DNA of 64,000 nucleotides from a virus. The translations under genes were made by a program, and so were the position numbers. The notes below the pieces were generated by a model. It did not search any database, had not been told where the DNA came from, and saw only the letters and a program-made list of their open reading frames with translations. The stretch is from positions 1-64,000 of the IMG/VR virus record IMGVR_UViG_3300027769_000020; one strand, given 5' to 3'. Below are positions 2,639-51,278 of the stretch, piece by piece. The first letter of the stretch is position 1. The number at the start of each line of letters is the position of its first letter.

Positions 2639-3841
2639 TTATAATTCTAACTTGATAACCTTACCTGGTAGGTCTGTATTCATATATGATTGTTCAGACA
2701 GCACCCATAAAATAGGAGCTTTAGGTTTAACGCTTGTATAGCATTCACCATCAGTAAAATACACCAAGCTAGTATATTTTCTTATATTTTCATTATAATA
2801 TTCAAGGACGGGATCAAATTCAGTCCCACCTCTACCATATATCTTAATTTCATTTTTACCTTTATACGGCTCTATACTCTTAATAGCCGTATCACACTGA
2901 ACTATTGTAATATCAACACCTTGTTTATAGATGTGATGTATCTCATTCATGAACTCATGTAATTCTTTATCACATACAGAACCTGAAGTATCAATAGCCA
3001 ACAACATATGTTGTTTCATTTTAATCTTTAGACCAGGATTTTCAGAATATCTTCTATTCTCTTTTCTCCTTATCTTTTTAGTATACACTTTAGATGATAC
3101 ACCAGTAAATCTTCTGATATAACCTTTCCAATCAAACTTAGGTGGAGTGATTGCCTCCATTTCAAGTAAGCCCTCAATTTCTCCAGGAACATTACCTCTT
3201 TTCTTTTCAGTCATTTCCTTAGCATCATTGAGAATCTTATTCAATTGCTTCTCAATTAGCTTCTGTTCAGCCTCAGTTAAATCTTCAAAATCAGACCATG
3301 TTGGATGATCACTTGGCATACCGTCACCAGAGTCCATCTGATCACACAATTTGTCAAAGTTTTCATCACCACTAGTTCCATCTTCACCACCTTTGTCTTT
3401 CTGTTCTTTAGCTTGTTGTAGTTTCTCATAATAATATCTACAACCAGCTTTTCTGTCTAAGTTTAAATCAGGATAATCATCTATATTGATACCACCTTCT
3501 GGGAGATAATCTGTATCAATATACTGATTGATCTCCATATCCATTGCAACATTAGCAAGCTTCTTATCACTAAACTTAAAATACATAGTCAAATGACCAA
3601 ATGCAATATGCAAAAGCTCATGTTTAAGTAATCCAAGTTTGTGATCTTCACTTAATCCTGTCCAGAATTCTTCATTAATAGTAAGCTGATAATTAATATT
3701 ATGTTTACTAACACCAGCAGTAGGAACTTTTTTATTATCCCATACTTTATTCAACATAATTAAAAAGAACCCATAATAAGGCTCCTTTAACATTAAGTCT
3801 TTACTGGTTTTTGCTAAACTATCTTCTCTAGTTTTAGTCAT
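2639..3841 (-). CDS. VWA-domain protein with N-terminal HExxH metallopeptidase-like domain (MoxR partner)
   Basis: HELLH; MIDAS DTSGS; GRGGT; YFTDG; adjacent to AAA ATPase. Confidence 0.85.
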   Translation of the reverse strand: MTKTREDSLAKTSKDLMLKEPYYGFFLIMLNKVWDNKKVPTAGVSKHNINYQLTINEEFWTGLSEDHKLGLLKHELLHIAFGHLTMYFKFSDKKLANVAMDMEINQYIDTDYLPEGGINIDDYPDLNLDRKAGCRYYYEKLQQAKEQKDKGGEDGTSGDENFDKLCDQMDSGDGMPSDHPTWSDFEDLTEAEQKLIEKQLNKILNDAKEMTEKKRGNVPGEIEGLLEMEAITPPKFDWKGYIRRFTGVSSKVYTKKIRRKENRRYSENPGLKIKMKQHMLLAIDTSGSVCDKELHEFMNEIHHIYKQGVDITIVQCDTAIKSIEPYKGKNEIKIYGRGGTEFDPVLEYYNENIRKYTSLVYFTDGECYTSVKPKAPILWVLSEQSYMNTDLPGKVIKLEL

Positions 3842-11620: not shown

Positions 11621-12490
11621 CTATCCCATTTTTCTCATGTTTCCATGAGGATCGGACTATATCATCACTTATCTTTATCATAAGTGGAGGATGCTCTGGG
11701 CTCACCTTAGTGTCCCTAGTCTCTGAACCTTCCCTGATCTTCCCCAGGGCTCGGCTGCTGATTGGCATAGGCGGACTGCCCTTAGCTTTCCAGCAATTCT
11801 TCCTCTTTACCCAGGACCCATTTATATGCTAAACAATCTATTTTATAAGGTTCAATAATATCTAAAAACTTTTGACAATCATATGTACTTATTCTAATAA
11901 TATTTGAATAAGTCATTCTTGCACAGTTTACATTCCATTTAGATTTAATTATATCAATAAGAAAATCAACGTCATCACCTAAAAAAGACTGAGTATTTAA
12001 CTCAATATGTGGTGATCTTTTTTTTCTTCTTGAAATATTTCCATCATCCATGTACCAAATTGCTAATGCAAATTCATCCATCATACATATATCATCTTTA
12101 TTTATTTCTTTAATTGTGTTATAATAAAGACTTCTATATTCTGAAAAAATTGGATGCGTTTTACTTTTAAAATGATAACTAGTGCATTCTCCTGTTTTAT
12201 ATCTACTTGACTTAGCAATTCTTTTATTAATTGCACCTGAAAGTAAATAATTTTCAAGAAAAGCATGTTTCCATTCTAAATAAGCTTTTTGTTTATGTCC
12301 ATGACCAAAAGTCATTCTATAGTTTTTACTTTTTTCCTCTTTTTTAGGAATTGACCCATCTCCAAGTAGAGAACCTCTAATAAATTGTTGTAACACATTC
12401 AATTTACTAATTGGAATTTCAATATATTTTGTATTTTTCATATACAAATATATACTTTATTGTCCAATTATGCAAATTAATTGCCGTTTA
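11621..12490 (-). mobile_element. Group I intron in ung
   Basis: Begins TAA after GAU, ends G; P AATTGCTGGAAA, Q AATCAGCAG, R TTCAGAGACTA, S GATATAGTCC; IGS GTCCTG pairs with CAGGAU. Confidence 0.93.
11782..12441 (-). CDS. Intron-encoded LAGLIDADG homing endonuclease (two-motif)
   Basis: IRGSLLGDGSI and LAIWYMDDG; probable ATG 12441; TATATTTG box at 12445-12452 (-). Confidence 0.9.
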   Translation of the reverse strand: MKNTKYIEIPISKLNVLQQFIRGSLLGDGSIPKKEEKSKNYRMTFGHGHKQKAYLEWKHAFLENYLLSGAINKRIAKSSRYKTGECTSYHFKSKTHPIFSEYRSLYYNTIKEINKDDICMMDEFALAIWYMDDGNISRRKKRSPHIELNTQSFLGDDVDFLIDIIKSKWNVNCARMTYSNIIRISTYDCQKFLDIIEPYKIDCLAYKWVLGKEEELLES

Positions 12491-21220: not shown

Positions 21221-21237
21221 TGCACTATATAGCTAAA
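21221..21237 (-). promoter_or_regulatory. 17-bp element TTTAGCTATATAGTGCA (copy 1)
   Basis: Identical to 51262-51278 (+); intergenic. Confidence 0.55.
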
Positions 21238-23944: not shown

Positions 23945-24190
23945 AACATATCATCACCACCAGGTGGAATACTACAGTACTTGAATTCATCAAGGTTCCG
24001 TTTGACTGCTGGATGATATGTTATTATTCTTTGTATAAATACCACAAGTCAAACTCTGCTTTACAGGATGAGAGTTTATGCCTGAAACCTTGTGGTAATA
24101 TTTAACTAGTATTCTTTTCACTCTTTGAACTAGTATAAAGTGTTAGCCGTTAAGTACTATAAGTACTAGCAATGAATTGGCTGATACATT
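23945..24190. ncRNA. Candidate structured non-coding RNA(s)
   Basis: ORF-free; 11-bp stem 23945-55/24012-22; 9-bp stem 24040-48/24089-97 with internal stems. Confidence 0.4.
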
Positions 24191-24283
24191 GCTTTTTTCT
24201 TTTATTATGATACATAATATAATCTGTTACCTTCATTAGTTCAGGTATAACTGATTAGTATAGATTTACAAATAGACCGGATA

Positions 24284-24496
24284 CTATGATTCTACAATAT
24301 ATAGAAAGTCATACATATCCATGTCATATTTATATACCTTAAGTGGTACATGTTTATGTGACTTATCTACATAAGCTACGGTATGATGAACATCTATATA
24401 TTCTCCATCAAAGTCTACAGATTCTAATATATCAATACCTCTGTAGTTATTAGCAAGTAACATTGCTATTGATTCCTGTTTAGTTACTGTTTTCAT
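24284..24496 (-). CDS. Hypothetical protein
   Basis: ORF with A-rich leader. Confidence 0.65.
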   Translation of the reverse strand: MKTVTKQESIAMLLANNYRGIDILESVDFDGEYIDVHHTVAYVDKSHKHVPLKVYKYDMDMYDFLYIVES

Positions 24497-25005
24497 ATCT
24501 TATATTTTAAATTTTAAATAAACCGGATTCTATAATACATTTATTCATTATAGTACAAGAACTAATATATATAATAACATATATACTAATAGACTAATGA
24601 CTATACTCATAGTTTTAGCTATATACTCTTAATACATAGTACTTTAGGGTGTATTTTACAGTGTTTTAACACAGTTTAGATATGAGGATAGTATGACACC
24701 CTACCACTAATACACACTTAAACATACAATTTTTACCATAGACCAAAAACTTAACTACCTGATTATCAGTAAGTGAGTCTACTTTGTCCACCGTGTGGAG
24801 ACAACTTTCTATTATCTTACCAGGTATATTGTGTATATATAATATTATGCTAATGAATCCACAGTGTCTTCTGTTACTTGTGTATAATAGTAAACTGTGT
24901 ATACCATATAGGTAATGAATCCTACTGACCATATAATAACTATATAGACCACAGTAAATAAAAACAATATACCTACGCTTATTACGGCATAGGTATATGT
25001 TATTA

Positions 25006-25302
25006 CTATAATTCTACATCAAAAGTTTTAGCCTGTGGTGCAAAGCTCAAAGAACTTACCACTTCTGCACCTACTCCTGCTTTATGTATCATCCAGCTTG
25101 GCTCTCCGTCCTCTGGATTAAACCAACTTACTACTAAATCATCAGACAGGTTTGTTACGTTTTCTGCTATACGGAAAGTGATTCCCGTATTAGTACTACC
25201 AAATAGTTTACCTGTTTTTGGATTCTTAAGTATGTCTATTTTAGTTAGACCATTAGACATTGCAAATCCGTTAATTGACTGTGTTCTTGTAAATGTGCTC
25301 AT
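25006..25302 (-). CDS. Early cassette protein, paralog A
   Basis: Clearly similar to 25425..25715. Confidence 0.8.
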   Translation of the reverse strand: MSTFTRTQSINGFAMSNGLTKIDILKNPKTGKLFGSTNTGITFRIAENVTNLSDDLVVSWFNPEDGEPSWMIHKAGVGAEVVSSLSFAPQAKTFDVEL

Positions 25303-25424
25303 AATTTTTATTTTTTAGAGTTAAACAATATATATCCATATTAGTTGAAAAATGGATAAAGATGCGTAGCAAAAAAATACACTATAAAAAATAAACCTCT
25401 ACCTATTACGGTAGAGGAATATCT

Positions 25425-25715
25425 TTAGAACTCTTGCATTACAGTTACTGGTGTGAAACTTAAAGTTGAAACAACTTCAGCACCAGCACCTTGTCTGTGT
25501 ATCATGTATGATGGTTCTCCGTCTTCAGGAGAAAACCATGATATTGCTAAATCATTACTTAATGCAGTAATGTCTTTAGCAAGACGCAATGTGTTACCCT
25601 TTGAGTCAACGGCAAATAAGTTACCGTTTTTAGGGTTTTTCAAGATATCAAATTTAGTGATACCGTTTGCTGATGCATAAGCACCAATGTTCTGTGTTTT
25701 AGAAAATGTAGACAT
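25425..25715 (-). CDS. Early cassette protein, paralog B
   Basis: Shares DILKNPK.G.LF and SWF.PEDGEPS.MIH..G.GAEVVS.LSF with 25006. Confidence 0.8.
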   Translation of the reverse strand: MSTFSKTQNIGAYASANGITKFDILKNPKNGNLFAVDSKGNTLRLAKDITALSNDLAISWFSPEDGEPSYMIHRQGAGAEVVSTLSFTPVTVMQEF

Positions 25716-25821
25716 GATCTTTAATTTTTATTAGTTAAACAATTTATATCAATATCAGTTAAAAAATGGATAAGGCTGACGCAGTCAAAAAAAAAGAGAG
25801 GACTTTAATCCCCTCTTGTTA

Positions 25822-26133
25822 TTACTCTTTAATAGGTCTACTGCAAGATAGAATATTCTTCTCTATCTTCTCAATAGTGAACCAAGATGTTCCATCATAC
25901 CCATCAAACTGAATCTCTTCTTCAGGGTGCAGATCTACTTCATAAGGTGTATACCCACCCTCTGCACAAGCTTCTTTAAATAAAGAATCTGAATATACAC
26001 GTTCAAGATCTTCATCCTCAAACATGTAATAACAATGATCAATTATGGCTCTTTTTAATTCTTCAAGTGTATCACACACTGTCCAGAACTCTGCACCATA
26101 ACTACTTTTATTTGCTGTAAATACTTTTTTCAT
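25822..26133 (-). CDS. Early acidic protein
   Basis: Own motif and terminator. Confidence 0.75.
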   Translation of the reverse strand: MKKVFTANKSSYGAEFWTVCDTLEELKRAIIDHCYYMFEDEDLERVYSDSLFKEACAEGGYTPYEVDLHPEEEIQFDGYDGTSWFTIEKIEKNILSCSRPIKE

Positions 26134-26210
26134 AATATATAATTTAAATTGTTAATTATTAATAGTTAAAAAATGGAAAAAAAGAATGGGTATAAACCCA
26201 CTCTTGTTAT

Positions 26211-26507
26211 TTACTTAACATCCCATTCTTGAATATGATAATGATATTCTAATGGGTCTTGCATCATATGTATTTCATTTAAATACATCATCTCTGCACT
26301 TTCATAACTATTGAATGTACCTTTATTATCTTGCATCCAATCTTGAAATGATTTGGGTTCAACTAACTTGTTATCACGTACAATCATTCTATTCATCTCT
26401 GAATTAGCAAGGGCTAATGATGTATGTACACTACATATAACTGTTGAACCGTGTTCACCTGTAACTCTTTCATAAGAGTTAGATAATATTATAAATACTT
26501 TTTCCAT
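26211..26507 (-). CDS. Early hypothetical protein
   Basis: Own motif and terminator. Confidence 0.75.
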   Translation of the reverse strand: MEKVFIILSNSYERVTGEHGSTVICSVHTSLALANSEMNRMIVRDNKLVEPKSFQDWMQDNKGTFNSYESAEMMYLNEIHMMQDPLEYHYHIQEWDVK

Positions 26508-26570
26508 AATCTTTAAGTTTATAATTAGTTAAAAAATGGTAAAATAAGAGAGAGCATAAGCTCCCTCTTG

Positions 26571-26831
26571 TTAAGGTATCAACATTACTGATCTGATATT
26601 TTTATCAGTTAATTCATCATACTCAGTGATTAAGTTGAACCAATGGTTGGCATAACCACTACTGTTCATGCAACGGCAAGTGATTCTTTCTTCTCTTAAA
26701 GAACCATAGAAAGAATAGTTATACTCACCTAATATGAATGAACCTGCATAGATCCATTCATTACCCTTTGCATCACGCATTGGGTGTATTGCTCTTACTG
26801 CATTTTCTAATGCTTCTCTAATCTTTTCCAT
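26571..26831 (-). CDS. Early hypothetical protein
   Basis: Own motif and terminator. Confidence 0.75.
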   Translation of the reverse strand: MEKIREALENAVRAIHPMRDAKGNEWIYAGSFILGEYNYSFYGSLREERITCRCMNSSGYANHWFNLITEYDELTDKNIRSVMLIP

Positions 26832-26880
26832 AACATATATTTTATTGACAGTTAAAAAATGGAAAAAATAAAGGGGTATA

Positions 26881-27054
26881 TTAATCCCCTATAGTCTTAA
26901 GAATCTCCAGCATTTCCTTTAGTGCTGTTCTATAACCAATATGCCAATGCCAATCATTATCAGTTGGTAAATCACCTGATTCTATCCAATGAGTAGTATC
27001 ATCTATATTTTCTTGTAGTGATTCTTTTAATCTTTCTAATTCTTTTATATTCAT
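26881..27054 (-). CDS. Early hypothetical protein (57 aa, start MNIKEL)
   Basis: ATG 27054 lies downstream of motif 27079. Confidence 0.7.
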   Translation of the reverse strand: MNIKELERLKESLQENIDDTTHWIESGDLPTDNDWHWHIGYRTALKEMLEILKTIGD

Positions 27055-27124
27055 AATCTTTAAGTTTAAATTATTAACAGTTAAAAAATGGTTTATTAAA
27101 AAGGGGGTATTATTCCCCCCTTTT

Positions 27125-27496
27125 TTACAAGTTTTTAAACATAGCAACTAAGTCAGCATGGTCATCATTACCATTAATGTCATCTAACTTAGGTAACTCA
27201 GGTAAGTTAACATCTTTGCCTGAATATACATTCCAATCTACTGAACCATAACCTGTACGTTTATCAAAGTTCTCCATGACATATGCATGAAGCATTTTCC
27301 ATATATCATCACAATACATGCCTGTAAGTTTATGATATCCATCAATAGTGAGTCCATCAAATCTTGGTACATAACCCATAGTATCCCATGAGTAACCATC
27401 TTCAAACATTCTTACTTTCTTTGCAACAAATGTTATTACAGGAAAAGCAATAGTGTTTTCTACCTCAATTTTCTTTTTATACGTTATTGTTTTCAT
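27125..27496 (-). CDS. Early hypothetical protein
   Basis: Own motif and terminator. Confidence 0.75.
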   Translation of the reverse strand: MKTITYKKKIEVENTIAFPVITFVAKKVRMFEDGYSWDTMGYVPRFDGLTIDGYHKLTGMYCDDIWKMLHAYVMENFDKRTGYGSVDWNVYSGKDVNLPELPKLDDINGNDDHADLVAMFKNL

Positions 27497-27556
27497 AATA
27501 AATAGTTTTAATTATTAATAGTTATAAAATGGTCCCCGCAGGGGAAATAGTGTGCA

Positions 27557-27700
27557 TCATTTAACACACACTATTTTAAACAGACCTTGAGTATATCCAT
27601 TACTCATAAGTTGTTTCTTTTTCCAAAGGGCTAATGCCTTAGAAGGAAACACAAAGCTCTCTATGAGTCTTGTGTTATTATAGTATTCTAATCTATACAT
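27557..27700 (-). CDS. Early hypothetical protein (47 aa, start MYRLEY)
   Basis: ATG 27700 lies downstream of motif 27719. Confidence 0.7.
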   Translation of the reverse strand: MYRLEYYNNTRLIESFVFPSKALALWKKKQLMSNGYTQGLFKIVCVK

Positions 27701-27931
27701 GGTATTATAATTAATAACAGTTATAAAATGGTAAGACAAAAAAAGAGAGAGAGTATTAAACTCTCTCTCAATGTTGCTGGCTAAAGCCTGTTCCGGTACT
27801 TACATCTCCAAAGCTATAAGGAGAACGCCTCTGACTTGAAACATAATGAGTATTGATAGAGATCATTAGTTCACTCTATCCATAATAGTTAAAAAATGGA
27901 TTAAGACAAAGAGAGATAACCTCTCCTTTCA

Positions 27932-28078
27932 TCAGAAAGGGAGGTCATCTTCATCAATATCATATGTATAATTCTCAAGGCTATCCATAGCCTCAAGAGT
28001 TATACGCATCATATCATTGTAATAGTCTTGCTCCTCTTGGAGCATGATATTAATATCATTGAATTCAGTATCACGCAT
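27932..28078 (-). CDS. 48-aa acidic early peptide ending in EDDLPF (SSB C-tail-like)
   Basis: MRDTEFNDINIMLQEEQDYYNDMMRITLEAMDSLENYTYDIDEDDLPF; missed by ORF track. Confidence 0.75.
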   Translation of the reverse strand: MRDTEFNDINIMLQEEQDYYNDMMRITLEAMDSLENYTYDIDEDDLPF

Positions 28079-28278
28079 AATATATAATTTTAAAGTTAAT
28101 AACAGTTATAAGATGGTTAAATAAAAAAGAGAAACACCCGAAGGTATCTCTCTTGCTTTCTCCTGATCTTGCCAAAGCTAAGCTCAAATGATGTGTGTTT
28201 ACATAACATACACATCATTCATTATAATTTATAAACAGTTATAAGATGGTAAAGAAAAAAACATAAGAGCCTAAGCTC

Positions 28279-28455
28279 TTATTTTTTGTACTTTTCTGAA
28301 TCAGGTGCGGCTAATACACCCATTAATAAGAAGAATGTTAAACCTATGAACACAGCAGCCAGTGTTGTCATGTGTTCAAGTATGCTCTCTGTAGCTGCAT
28401 AGCCAAGCATGATTGTACATGCAATCATAATCTTGTAGTGTAAAGAATATTTCAT
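28279..28455 (-). CDS. 58-aa two-TM membrane protein, first cassette of early array
   Basis: MKYSLHYKIMIACTIMLGYAATESILEHMTTLAAVFIGLTFFLLMGVLAAPDSEKYKK; terminator overlaps stop. Confidence 0.75.
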   Translation of the reverse strand: MKYSLHYKIMIACTIMLGYAATESILEHMTTLAAVFIGLTFFLLMGVLAAPDSEKYKK

Positions 28456-28492
28456 AGTGTGTAATTTTTAATTAAATTAAGTTAGAAAATGG

Positions 28493-28633
28493 TTGCCTTG
28501 CGCAGCAAGCATGGGGGGTACCACCTCTGGCTTCAGGGGGTGGGGGTGTTGTAGTAGGGGTCCATCACAAAGCCCTACATATATAAATTCCCCTAGCCGT
28601 AAGTTCATCACACCTGGGGTGAAAATAACCCGC
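28493..28633. other. GC-rich island at the divergence of the two arms
   Basis: G-tracts G6/G5/G5/G4 and hairpins in an AT-rich genome. Confidence 0.6.
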
Positions 28634-28663
28634 AAAAGTTATTGTGTATTGTACCAATGTTAT

Positions 28664-28735
28664 TATATTTGTACTAATTAGTTTTTAAATTTTATTGTTA
28701 TCATTAATCCTCAGATGTATGTCTGGGGATTTTTG
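28664..28735 (+). ncRNA. Promoter-short U-rich RNA-terminator unit 1
   Basis: TATATTTG, ~30 nt, AATCCTCAGA-TGTATG-TCTGGGGATT-TTT. Confidence 0.45.
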
Positions 28736-29579: not shown

Positions 29580-29685
29580 TTATTATATTTGTTGAGCTGA
29601 TAAGTGTTTACGGTTCATTTATTTTGTGATTAAAAGTTATATCTAAAAAGTAAGCTCTAGTTAATTCTTAGGGCTTATTTTTTTT
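29559..29685 (+). ncRNA. Promoter-short RNA-terminator unit 2
   Basis: TTTG-N21-TATATTTG (Bacteroidota sigma consensus), ~55 nt, TAAGCTCTA..TAGGGCTTA-T8. Confidence 0.5.
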
Positions 29686-51261: not shown

Positions 51262-51278
51262 TTTAGCTATATAGTGCA
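51262..51278 (+). promoter_or_regulatory. 17-bp element TTTAGCTATATAGTGCA (copy 2)
   Basis: Identical to reverse complement of 21221-21237. Confidence 0.55.

Follow-up and report, generated by a model that had tools for sequence, protein, structure and literature searches.

Introduction

Phage N4 injects a giant virion RNA polymerase (vRNAP), which is a T7-like single-subunit enzyme, and a hairpin at a fixed position is the main determinant of its promoters. In phages of the T7 group (T7, T3, SP6, and K11), a contiguous promoter of ~20 nt is located just upstream of the genes and contains both conserved and lineage-specific positions. Here, we describe an array of 12 short cassettes, each headed by a copy of the same motif, which is located on the - strand at 24967-28492 in a stretch of 64,000 nt of viral DNA, hereafter called the window. 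The window represents the first 64 kb of the 91,527-bp IMG/VR record IMGVR_UViG_3300027769_000020, which we refer to as G000, and its array is abbreviated W in comparisons with related IMG/VR records. The latter, more distant genomes included, carry the working labels G001-G009, L032, L036, L037, and L040.

In the Thermus phage P23-45, the injected two-barrel RNA polymerase (RNAP) gp96 is associated with AT-rich promoters of the first-expressed (pre-early) genes, for which start sites have been mapped, chromatin immunoprecipitation has been done, and the comparative presence of the motif has been used as support (10.1101/2022.12.01.518664). In T4-like phages, PeSL elements combine a terminator and an early promoter beside small, mostly ORFan genes, and excised circles have been reported (PMC2839356, PMC4122927).

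A motif confined to a single array of short units

The core motif CCATYTTHTAACT had 11 exact matches in the window, all of them on the - strand between positions 25757 and 28492, although only 0.02 matches were expected by chance and none of 100 shuffled sequences reached 11. A twelfth copy with one mismatch (CCATTTTTCAACT) was identified at 25343-25355 (-). These counts agree with the sequence-only reading of the window, which had described a 13-bp motif repeated 12 times on the - strand in ~3.2 kb. The same reading had noticed the motif nowhere else in the window, and this extended to the whole 91,527-bp record, in which no other exact match to CCATYTTHTAACT was found. Furthermore, a weight matrix of 23 nt, built from 35 distinct motif copies, assigned scores of 19 to 33 bits to the 12 window sites and identified no further site of at least 10 bits on either strand of the record.

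The full motif spans ~21 nt and can be written as aCCATyTTwTAACT-N3-AwTrA, that is, a 13-nt core followed by 3 variable bases and AwTrA. Nine of the 13 core positions were invariant, while the T at +18 was present in 33 and the A at +20 in all 35 of the copies. The spacing between the copies in the window ranged from 133 to 441 nt.

Ahead of each copy was a hairpin, in most cases with a T-run after it, and a scan of the 23.5-29.8 kb region identified 18 terminator-like sites compared to 1.8 expected, one of which was located before each motif. Open reading frames (ORFs) of 32 to 123 amino acids with ATG start codons began 31 to 54 nt from the start of the motif in all units except units 2 and 4, which contained no convincing conserved ORF. 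Between the terminator and the start codon, the motif was the sole conserved sequence. It was also noted that the terminator of the last unit extended to 24967, slightly past the left end of 25006 given earlier. The description of each motif as the head of one short unit with its own terminator is thus confirmed by the terminator scan and the ORF positions, and the interpretation of the units as autonomous cassettes with a promoter-like element and a terminator is supported. The possibility that the T-run in the motif is merely a part of the terminator was ruled out, since the copies in G006 have ACTC in that place.

The motif is neither of the sigma-70 type nor of the Bacteroidota sigma-A type (-33 TTTG / -7 TAnnTTTG). 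Boxes of the TTATTATATTTGT type, which fit the Bacteroidota -7 element TAnnTTTG, were identified in the gaps of the + arm at 28664, 29584, 31498, 34609, and 42745, often directly after a terminator. No TAnnTTTG-type box was located between the terminator and the start codon in the array gaps; the 2 matches in these gaps fell inside units 2 and 4, at a distance of more than 100 nt from the ATG. The earlier claim of a motif unlike the host TAnnTTTG promoter therefore stands. The box was modestly enriched (1.96 kb of gaps contained 5 matches, 60 kb of coding sequence 41), and this enrichment was not significant genome-wide. As a side observation, the box TTATTATATTTGT at the beginning of 28660-28731 (+) is followed within ~35 nt by a strong terminator hairpin at 28706-28731, forming a very short unit that is directed rightward and placed back to back with the array, and similar units were seen at 29584 and 31498.

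Cassette content is shuffled among relatives

The 21-nt version of the motif matched nine IMG/VR stretches, all of which carried motif arrays with the copies on the same strand. The record G001, which is 117.9 kb long and rated complete, is collinear with G000 at ~80% nucleotide identity. Its 11 copies form a single cluster at 21.6-24.7 kb, and the only other match was at chance level. A scan of the complete genome and relatives had been suggested in the sequence-only reading, and in both G000 and G001 it placed the motif within the array.

To compare the cassettes, we selected 7 distinct arrays, 6 of which have the motif of the window, while L037 has a variant motif. The arrays contained 5 to 15 cassettes, and their proteins were sorted into 35 families, 22 of which were singletons. 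The first cassette, which encodes a hydrophobic protein of 58 to 68 amino acids, and the last 2 cassettes, which encode paralogs of 96 to 99 amino acids, were common to most arrays. The middle was re-ordered or replaced, such that the genes for proteins of 123, 57, and 86 amino acids in the window corresponded to genes for proteins of 84, 123, and 58 amino acids in G001. Likewise, G004 contained one cassette where G005 contained three.

The blocks of homology between genomes started and stopped at the repeat. For example, cassette 8 in the window aligned with G004 from the start of its own motif to +37 of the next motif (m8+0..m9+37 versus m3+0..m4+37). Among the 83 homology ends inside the arrays, 64 were located within -45 to +55 of a motif in both genomes, a range that covers ~36% of the positions; these ends are non-independent events and the breakpoint count is therefore descriptive. 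The comparison provides good support for an array that would recombine at its repeats. It also upholds the earlier claim of a recombining plug-in array and answers the comparison of cassette content across relatives proposed with it, in that the number of cassettes, their content, and their order vary and the breakpoints coincide with the motif.

Motifs and mini-hairpins differ between lineages

Arrays with more degenerate repeats escaped exact k-mer clustering and were located by synteny and inspection. They occupied the same genomic position as the array in the window, with motifs that were homologous but different. The motif was CCATYTTWTAACT in G001 (11 copies) and G002 (at least 9 copies), and CCAACTCAnnACT in G006 (5 copies), while G007 contained 3 copies of a TCAGCTCTAAACT-like motif at the junction. 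In G008 and G009, 3 copies each of ACARCTTnnnACT were located 8 to 12 nt after a GCCTRCGGCA mini-hairpin. L037 contained 6 to 8 copies of TTCATCTTYTAACT, and L040 contained ~4 copies of CTAACCCTTAGCTTA and also repeated the host-type word TTATATTTGT 6 times beside this different array motif. The G001-type and G006-type motifs take the forms CCATTTTWTAACT... and CCAACTCATAACT..., respectively. The motif CCAACTCAnnACT was absent from G000 and G001, the CCAT form was absent from G006, and the CCAACTCAnnACT copies occurred nowhere else in G006, which is 121.5 kb long with terminal repeats and rated complete. All variants had a common skeleton of CA at positions 2-3, T at position 6, and ACT at positions 11-13, with lineage-specific bases at the other positions.

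In the window, a mini-hairpin with a triloop was located 4 to 7 nt upstream of the motif in cassettes 1, 11, and 12, which are the anchors common to the relatives. A triloop was also present at copy 6, and the spacing to the motif across the window copies was 0 to 7 nt. At the anchor promoters, the spacing across lineages was 4 to 11 nt. From these patterns, the 3 hairpin-associated promoters, one at the head and two at the tail, look ancestral and the other cassettes look like later insertions, such that the large arrays would represent an expansion within one sublineage.

A homolog of the crAss-type virion RNA polymerase

In G001, the gene located after the point where the G000 contig stops encodes a protein of 4,116 amino acids with the sequence DFDVD at residue 2317. 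The central 950 residues had hundreds of homologs of 2,300 to 4,700 amino acids, encoded on contigs of ~110-120 kb, and in an alignment of 25 such homologs, DFDVD did not vary. When the 4,116-residue protein was searched by sequence against PDB, Pfam, and PHROGs, no polymerase was detected. An AlphaFold model of residues 1801-2900, with a mean predicted local distance difference test (pLDDT) score of 62, gave one significant match in PDB, namely the vRNAP of phi14:2, a crAss-like phage (6vr4_A), with a Foldseek E-value of 1.7e-10 and a probability of 1.00. As judged from this model, the lineage encodes a homolog of the virion two-barrel RNAPs, and this homolog is the only phage polymerase detected. 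An earlier candidate, DFDGD at residue 34 of a 757-residue ORF (G000 80282-82555), had no match in PDB or among phage proteins and was dropped in favor of the 4,116-residue protein.

No Sigma70_r2 domain was identified in 5 genomes of the group, and a search of the same genomes for T7-type RNAPs, which had no positive control, returned nothing. Tyrosine and serine recombinases (PF00589, PF00239) were absent from the 5 genomes, 4 of which are at least 96% complete, in searches with positive controls. Explanations based on a sigma factor or an integron-like system thus gained no support from the family searches.

The identity between G001 and G006 was 91% to 99.8% for the capsid, portal, terminase, helicase, and thymidylate synthase (ThyA) proteins, but fell to 46% to 61% for the cargo proteins, to 56% for the giant protein, and to 79% for its polymerase core, and the array motifs of the two genomes differ. 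Such a change of motif together with divergence of the polymerase module is what a promoter of the injected polymerase would predict, and the reasoning is parallel to that applied to the P23-45 virion polymerase. Taking G001 as the reference (100%), the identity of the polymerase core was 96% in G002, which has the same CCATYTTWTAACT motif, 79% in G006 with CCAACTCAnnACT, 65% in G007 with the TCAGCTCTAAACT-like motif, and 60% and 58% in G008 and G009 with ACARCTTnnnACT, a series of few lineages in which other proteins have co-diverged.

It was also noted that the giant protein (G001 90735-103085, L031) and its homologs (P0002-P0121) have C-terminal domains that vary among phages, such as a 2OG-Fe(II) oxygenase, a circularly permuted YpsA/SLOG domain, a PIF1-type helicase, and YbiA/DUF1768. 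From its domain composition, the injected giant protein may be a carrier of swappable effector modules.

Which polymerase reads the motif

We favor, with moderate confidence, the interpretation that the cassettes form a hyperplastic immediate-early array with a motif that is most likely read by the injected vRNAP of the phage. In this scheme, the array would head the leftward arm and consist of 12 autonomous transcription units, in each of which the intrinsic terminator of the previous unit is followed by the ~21-nt motif, an A/T-rich leader of 10 to 30 nt, and a tiny gene or small RNA. The motif would be a promoter that the host polymerase with its primary sigma factor does not use, and the injected two-barrel vRNAP would read it, perhaps with the invariant A at +20 as the start site, and thereby express the array genes first, without the host polymerase. 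The junction repeat of ~60-90 nt, composed of the terminator tail, the motif, and the leader, would serve as homology for recombination, such that cassettes can be gained, lost, duplicated, and re-ordered while each remains expressible. We infer the promoter activity, the identity of the reading polymerase, the start site, and the roles of the cassette genes from these patterns.

The sequence-only reading had named the motif the promoter of the virion RNAP. The confinement of the motif to the array, its difference from host-type promoters, and its lineage specificity are in line with this claim, whereas the assignment to this particular polymerase is circumstantial. On balance, the injected crAss-type polymerase is probably the reader. 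A more specific proposal can be put forward only tentatively: the motif family nCAnCTnnnnACT-N3-AnTrA, with a triloop at the 3 ancestral copies, could be the promoter of the crAss-type vRNAP in this group, with a specificity that co-evolves with the enzyme and with an expansion from 3 to at most 15 cassettes in one sublineage.

Several observations weigh against a role for the injected polymerase. The motif is a putative promoter, and its start site is predicted from the DNA. In phi14:2, which provides the only studied crAss-type vRNAP system, no upstream motif common to the early transcripts was detected, and in vitro transcription by the enzyme required single-stranded or denatured DNA. The model that covers the DFDVD loop is of low confidence, with the mean pLDDT of 62, and the contig of the window ends before the vRNAP gene, such that the polymerase homolog is known from relatives. 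The host-type box has modest statistical backing. Very few independent lineages underlie the co-variation of motif and polymerase, and this co-variation is confounded, since G001 and G006 also diverge in other cargo proteins and in several proteins encoded between the capsid and muzzle genes. The latter are possibly tail or receptor-binding proteins, and in that case, the difference in motif could reflect a switch of host. Finally, gene conversion alone can produce a concerted change of the repeats within a genome.

These points lead to the alternative that the motif is a promoter for the host RNAP, assisted by an alternative host sigma factor or by a small specificity factor that is encoded or injected by the phage, in which case the array would be an ordinary early region transcribed by the host. 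In crAss-like phages, the middle and late genes are transcribed by the host polymerase, and no sequence-specific promoter was seen for the phi14:2 vRNAP. Where the motif changes between G001 and G006, other, possibly tail, proteins diverge as well, so that the host may differ, and most proteins in these phages belong to no family, which leaves room for a small unrecognized factor. However, the motif is unlike the Bacteroidota -33/-7 consensus that the genome appears to use elsewhere, and its compact, contiguous 21-nt block contrasts with the two-box promoters of sigma factors. Moreover, the 5 genomes contained no Sigma70_r2 domain, and the motif differs among close relatives, one of which repeats the host-type word. 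We therefore regard transcription of the array by the host enzyme as rather unlikely.

The motif might alternatively act in the RNA, as a leader element (a translational operator or enhancer) or as a site of RNA processing, the early transcript then being polycistronic, with one upstream promoter and leaky terminators. It is always in the sense orientation, 31 to 54 nt before the start codon, and thus inside the would-be 5' leader, and mRNAs in the Bacteroidota are generally known to rely on A/U-rich leaders rather than on Shine-Dalgarno sequences. However, the strong intrinsic terminator before each unit, as reflected in the 18 versus 1.8 sites, would defeat polycistronic expression, and the motif lies at distances from the start codon that differ by more than 20 nt. 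The units with no conserved ORF also carry the motif, and the first copy has no gene upstream. A function in the RNA is accordingly improbable.

The idea that the hairpin and motif represent a site for a site-specific recombinase, comparable to the attC sites of integrons and with enzyme-driven mobility of the cassettes, draws on the cassette-like architecture, the imperfect inverted repeats beside a conserved core, and the variable content among relatives, but we consider it very unlikely indeed, given that the 5 genomes lack the tyrosine or serine recombinase of an integron-like array, that the GC-rich stems and T-runs are typical of intrinsic terminators with sequences and spacings to the motif that vary, and that the homology runs through the motif into the leader, as predicted for homologous exchange.

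The cassettes and their products

Just upstream of the first motif, a GC-rich element of ~90 nt at 28493-28585 (-) ends in a CTTGC-TGC-GCAAG triloop mini-hairpin. The element (...CCCCCACCCC...GGAGGTGGTACCCCC...) was retained in W, G001, G005, L032, L036, G006, and G007, and the DNA further upstream or around it was not conserved among these genomes. It had no match in Rfam and no convincing consensus fold.

All cassettes are on the - strand. Cassette 1, the head anchor (28263-28492; motif 28480-28492), encodes the hydrophobic protein of 58 amino acids (28279-28455) and ends with a terminator at 28263-28282. The same protein family heads the arrays of G001, G005, L032, L036, and G006. Cassette 2 (28127-28249; motif 28237-28249; terminator 28127-28154) is a unit of 133 nt that contains an ORF of only 7 codons, while a frame of 33 amino acids reads through the terminator. 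No homologous unit was found in the relatives, and the product of cassette 2 is likely a small RNA or a micropeptide.

Cassette 3 (27920-28116; motif 28104-28116; terminator 27920-27940) encodes an acidic peptide of 48 amino acids (27932-28078) that ends in DEDDLPF, while the homologs in G001 and G002/G005 end in DDDDLPF. The bacterial single-stranded DNA-binding protein (SSB) recruits partners through its C-terminal tail, which we presume the DEDDLPF ending to resemble. The peptide could be a decoy for host proteins that interact with SSB.

Cassette 4 (27745-27899; motif 27887-27899; terminator 27745-27769) would correspond to an RNA of ~150 nt (27732-27886). The DNA of this cassette was 81% to 83% identical to that of units in G005 and G004, but the frame of 32 amino acids is interrupted by a 5-nt indel, and a conserved set of 3 to 4 hairpins was predicted that is common to the units of the relatives. 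Because the frame is broken while the DNA and the hairpins are conserved, the product is likely a non-coding small RNA. The earlier suggestion that some of the cassettes encode RNA is plausible for cassettes 2 and 4, neither of which has a convincing conserved ORF.

Cassette 5 (27533-27731; motif 27719-27731) contains an ORF of 47 amino acids (27557-27700) and a hairpin at 27533-27546 directly adjoining the next motif. This gene has no motif of its own in G001, G005, and G004, where it is placed after another gene. Cassette 6 (27103-27532; motif 27520-27532; terminator 27103-27119) contains the ORF of 123 amino acids (27125-27496) and was 79% identical to cassette 7 in G001. The protein had 53 clusters of homologs, all of which are unnamed metagenomic proteins, and a confident model of it (pLDDT 78) matched no fold in PDB.

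Cassette 7 (26872-27091; motif 27079-27091; terminator ~26872-26890) contains an ORF of 57 amino acids (26881-27054). Cassette 8 (26549-26862; motif 26850-26862; terminator 26549-26568) contains an ORF of 86 amino acids (26571-26831) and was 83% identical to cassette 3 in G004. Cassette 9 (26182-26539; motif 26527-26539; terminator 26182-26205), with an ORF of 98 amino acids (26211-26507), and cassette 10 (25794-26176; motif 26164-26176; terminator 25794-25817), with an ORF of 103 amino acids (25822-26133), were singletons among the arrays compared.

The tail anchors are cassette 11 (25396-25769), with the mini-hairpin CTGCGTCAG, a motif at 25757-25769, an ORF of 96 amino acids (25425-25715), and a terminator at 25396-25417, and cassette 12 (24967-25355), with the mini-hairpin GCTACGCA, the one-mismatch motif at 25343-25355, an ORF of 98 amino acids (25006-25302), and a terminator at 24967-24998. 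Their proteins are paralogs with 62% sequence identity (57% in a separate alignment), and the cassette 12 family closes the arrays of G001, G005, G004, L032, L036, and L037. Searches of 10 cassette proteins against Pfam and PHROGs assigned none of them to a family, and the tail-anchor protein had no match in the ESM Atlas. The array can thus be viewed as a compact and highly variable set of putative first-expressed ORFan genes and small RNAs, and as a natural place to look for host-takeover and counter-defense functions.

Phage identity and genome context

The source is a divergent crAss-like phage from a group with genomes of ~118 kb. A protein of 1,768 amino acids encoded beyond the window matched the Crassvirus muzzle family PF25731 (3.5e-32), which is a hallmark of the Crassvirales, and the terminase, portal, and major capsid proteins matched PHROG families. 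The terminase was 24% to 26% identical to those of named crAss-like phages. Two divergent arms, for replication and structural genes, meet at ~28.5-29.0 kb. The leftward arm starts with the array and continues with replication genes for a primase, DnaB-like and SNF2-type helicases, and AAA_24, as well as with homing endonucleases; the rightward arm starts with thymidylate synthase, followed by the structural genes. The G000 contig ends inside the cargo genes, short of the vRNAP gene. The muzzle protein, the structural matches, and the layout of the arms all corroborate the initial assignment of the phage as crAss-like. A nucleotide search with the array against GenBank phages gave no match, no tRNA was found in a tRNA search, and Rfam produced only sub-threshold matches over 23-30 kb.

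A few additional features were noted. Three genes of the homing-endonuclease type (GIY-YIG with NUMOD1, HNH, and LAGLIDADG) are located on the - strand amid the replication genes at 1391-2140, 2639-3841, and 11782-12447. Just past the array, the non-coding stretch 24061-24287 was 96.5% identical to a part of IMG/VR contig 3300008267_002320 (L040), although the thymidylate synthase of this contig is only 74% identical to that in the window, and the stretch was absent from G001, G006, G008, and G009. It has the appearance of a non-coding element or small RNA gene that was exchanged recently. The intergenic word TTAGCTATATAGTGCA was identified at 21223-21232 (-) and 51267-51276 (+), where it precedes a left-arm gene and the gene before the capsid gene; in G009 and G008, the similar words ATTAGCTATATAGTACA and ATTAGCTATATATTACA precede left-arm genes that are comparably positioned. 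Words of this type may represent a second regulatory motif. Finally, a gene at 28.7-31.9 kb in G008 contained dense short in-frame repeats, with words such as GGTAGTCAAGG present 12 times.

Comparison with known systems

The closest architectural parallel is provided by the PeSLs, which likewise combine a terminator with an early promoter beside small, mostly ORFan genes in a hyperplastic region, the promoter function being inferred here. In both systems, stem-loops and promoter-like elements are located in the gaps, insertions, deletions, and replacements end at the elements, and homologous recombination between the repeats has been proposed (PMC2839356, PMC4122927). However, the elements in T4 carry early promoters for the host sigma-70 and are spread over several regions of a myovirus, whereas here a single array with a contiguous 21-nt motif that is not of the host type is found in a crAss-like phage, and the motif changes between lineages. 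The array thus represents an established type of system in a new context, with a promoter-like motif that is specific to the phage rather than of the host type, and the shuffling of promoter-terminator cassettes known from T4-like phages operates in crAss-like phages too.

With regard to the polymerase, P23-45 gp96 provides a similar combination of an injected two-barrel RNAP and a conserved motif upstream of clustered pre-early genes (10.1101/2022.12.01.518664). It differs in that the polymerase of this siphovirus is fused to the tape-measure protein and that its starts have been mapped, while those of the array are predicted. The phi14:2 enzyme gp66 (PDB 6VR4) was the sole significant structural match to the core of the giant protein; the two have a DFDxD in which the fourth residue is I or V, and each is encoded by a virion cargo gene downstream of the muzzle gene. 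However, no promoter is known for phi14:2, the early transcripts of which have no common upstream motif, whereas the motif described here is sharp and known from sequence.

The array also recalls N4, with its few (three) early promoters and giant injected polymerase, in that triloops are located beside 3 anchor promoters here and in G007, G008, and G009. Unlike in N4, 8 to 9 of the 12 copies in the window have no mini-hairpin and the spacing of the hairpin to the motif varies, and an N4-type hairpin promoter was rejected as a general model since most copies have no fixed hairpin. Similar to the promoters of the T7 group, the array motif is a contiguous block of ~20 nt upstream of genes with conserved and lineage-specific positions, but the polymerase belongs to another class and the co-evolution with the enzyme is only suggested here.

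Among the papers that could be searched, none defines a promoter for a crAss-type virion polymerase, and phi14:2, the one studied system, gave no motif. The array motif thus provides a sharp candidate signal for such an enzyme. Its putative natural specificity variants, CCATTTT, CCAACTC, TCAGCTC, and ACAGCTT ... ACT, accompany polymerase variants in otherwise near-identical genomes, which makes the question of how crAss-type vRNAPs recognize their promoters directly testable.

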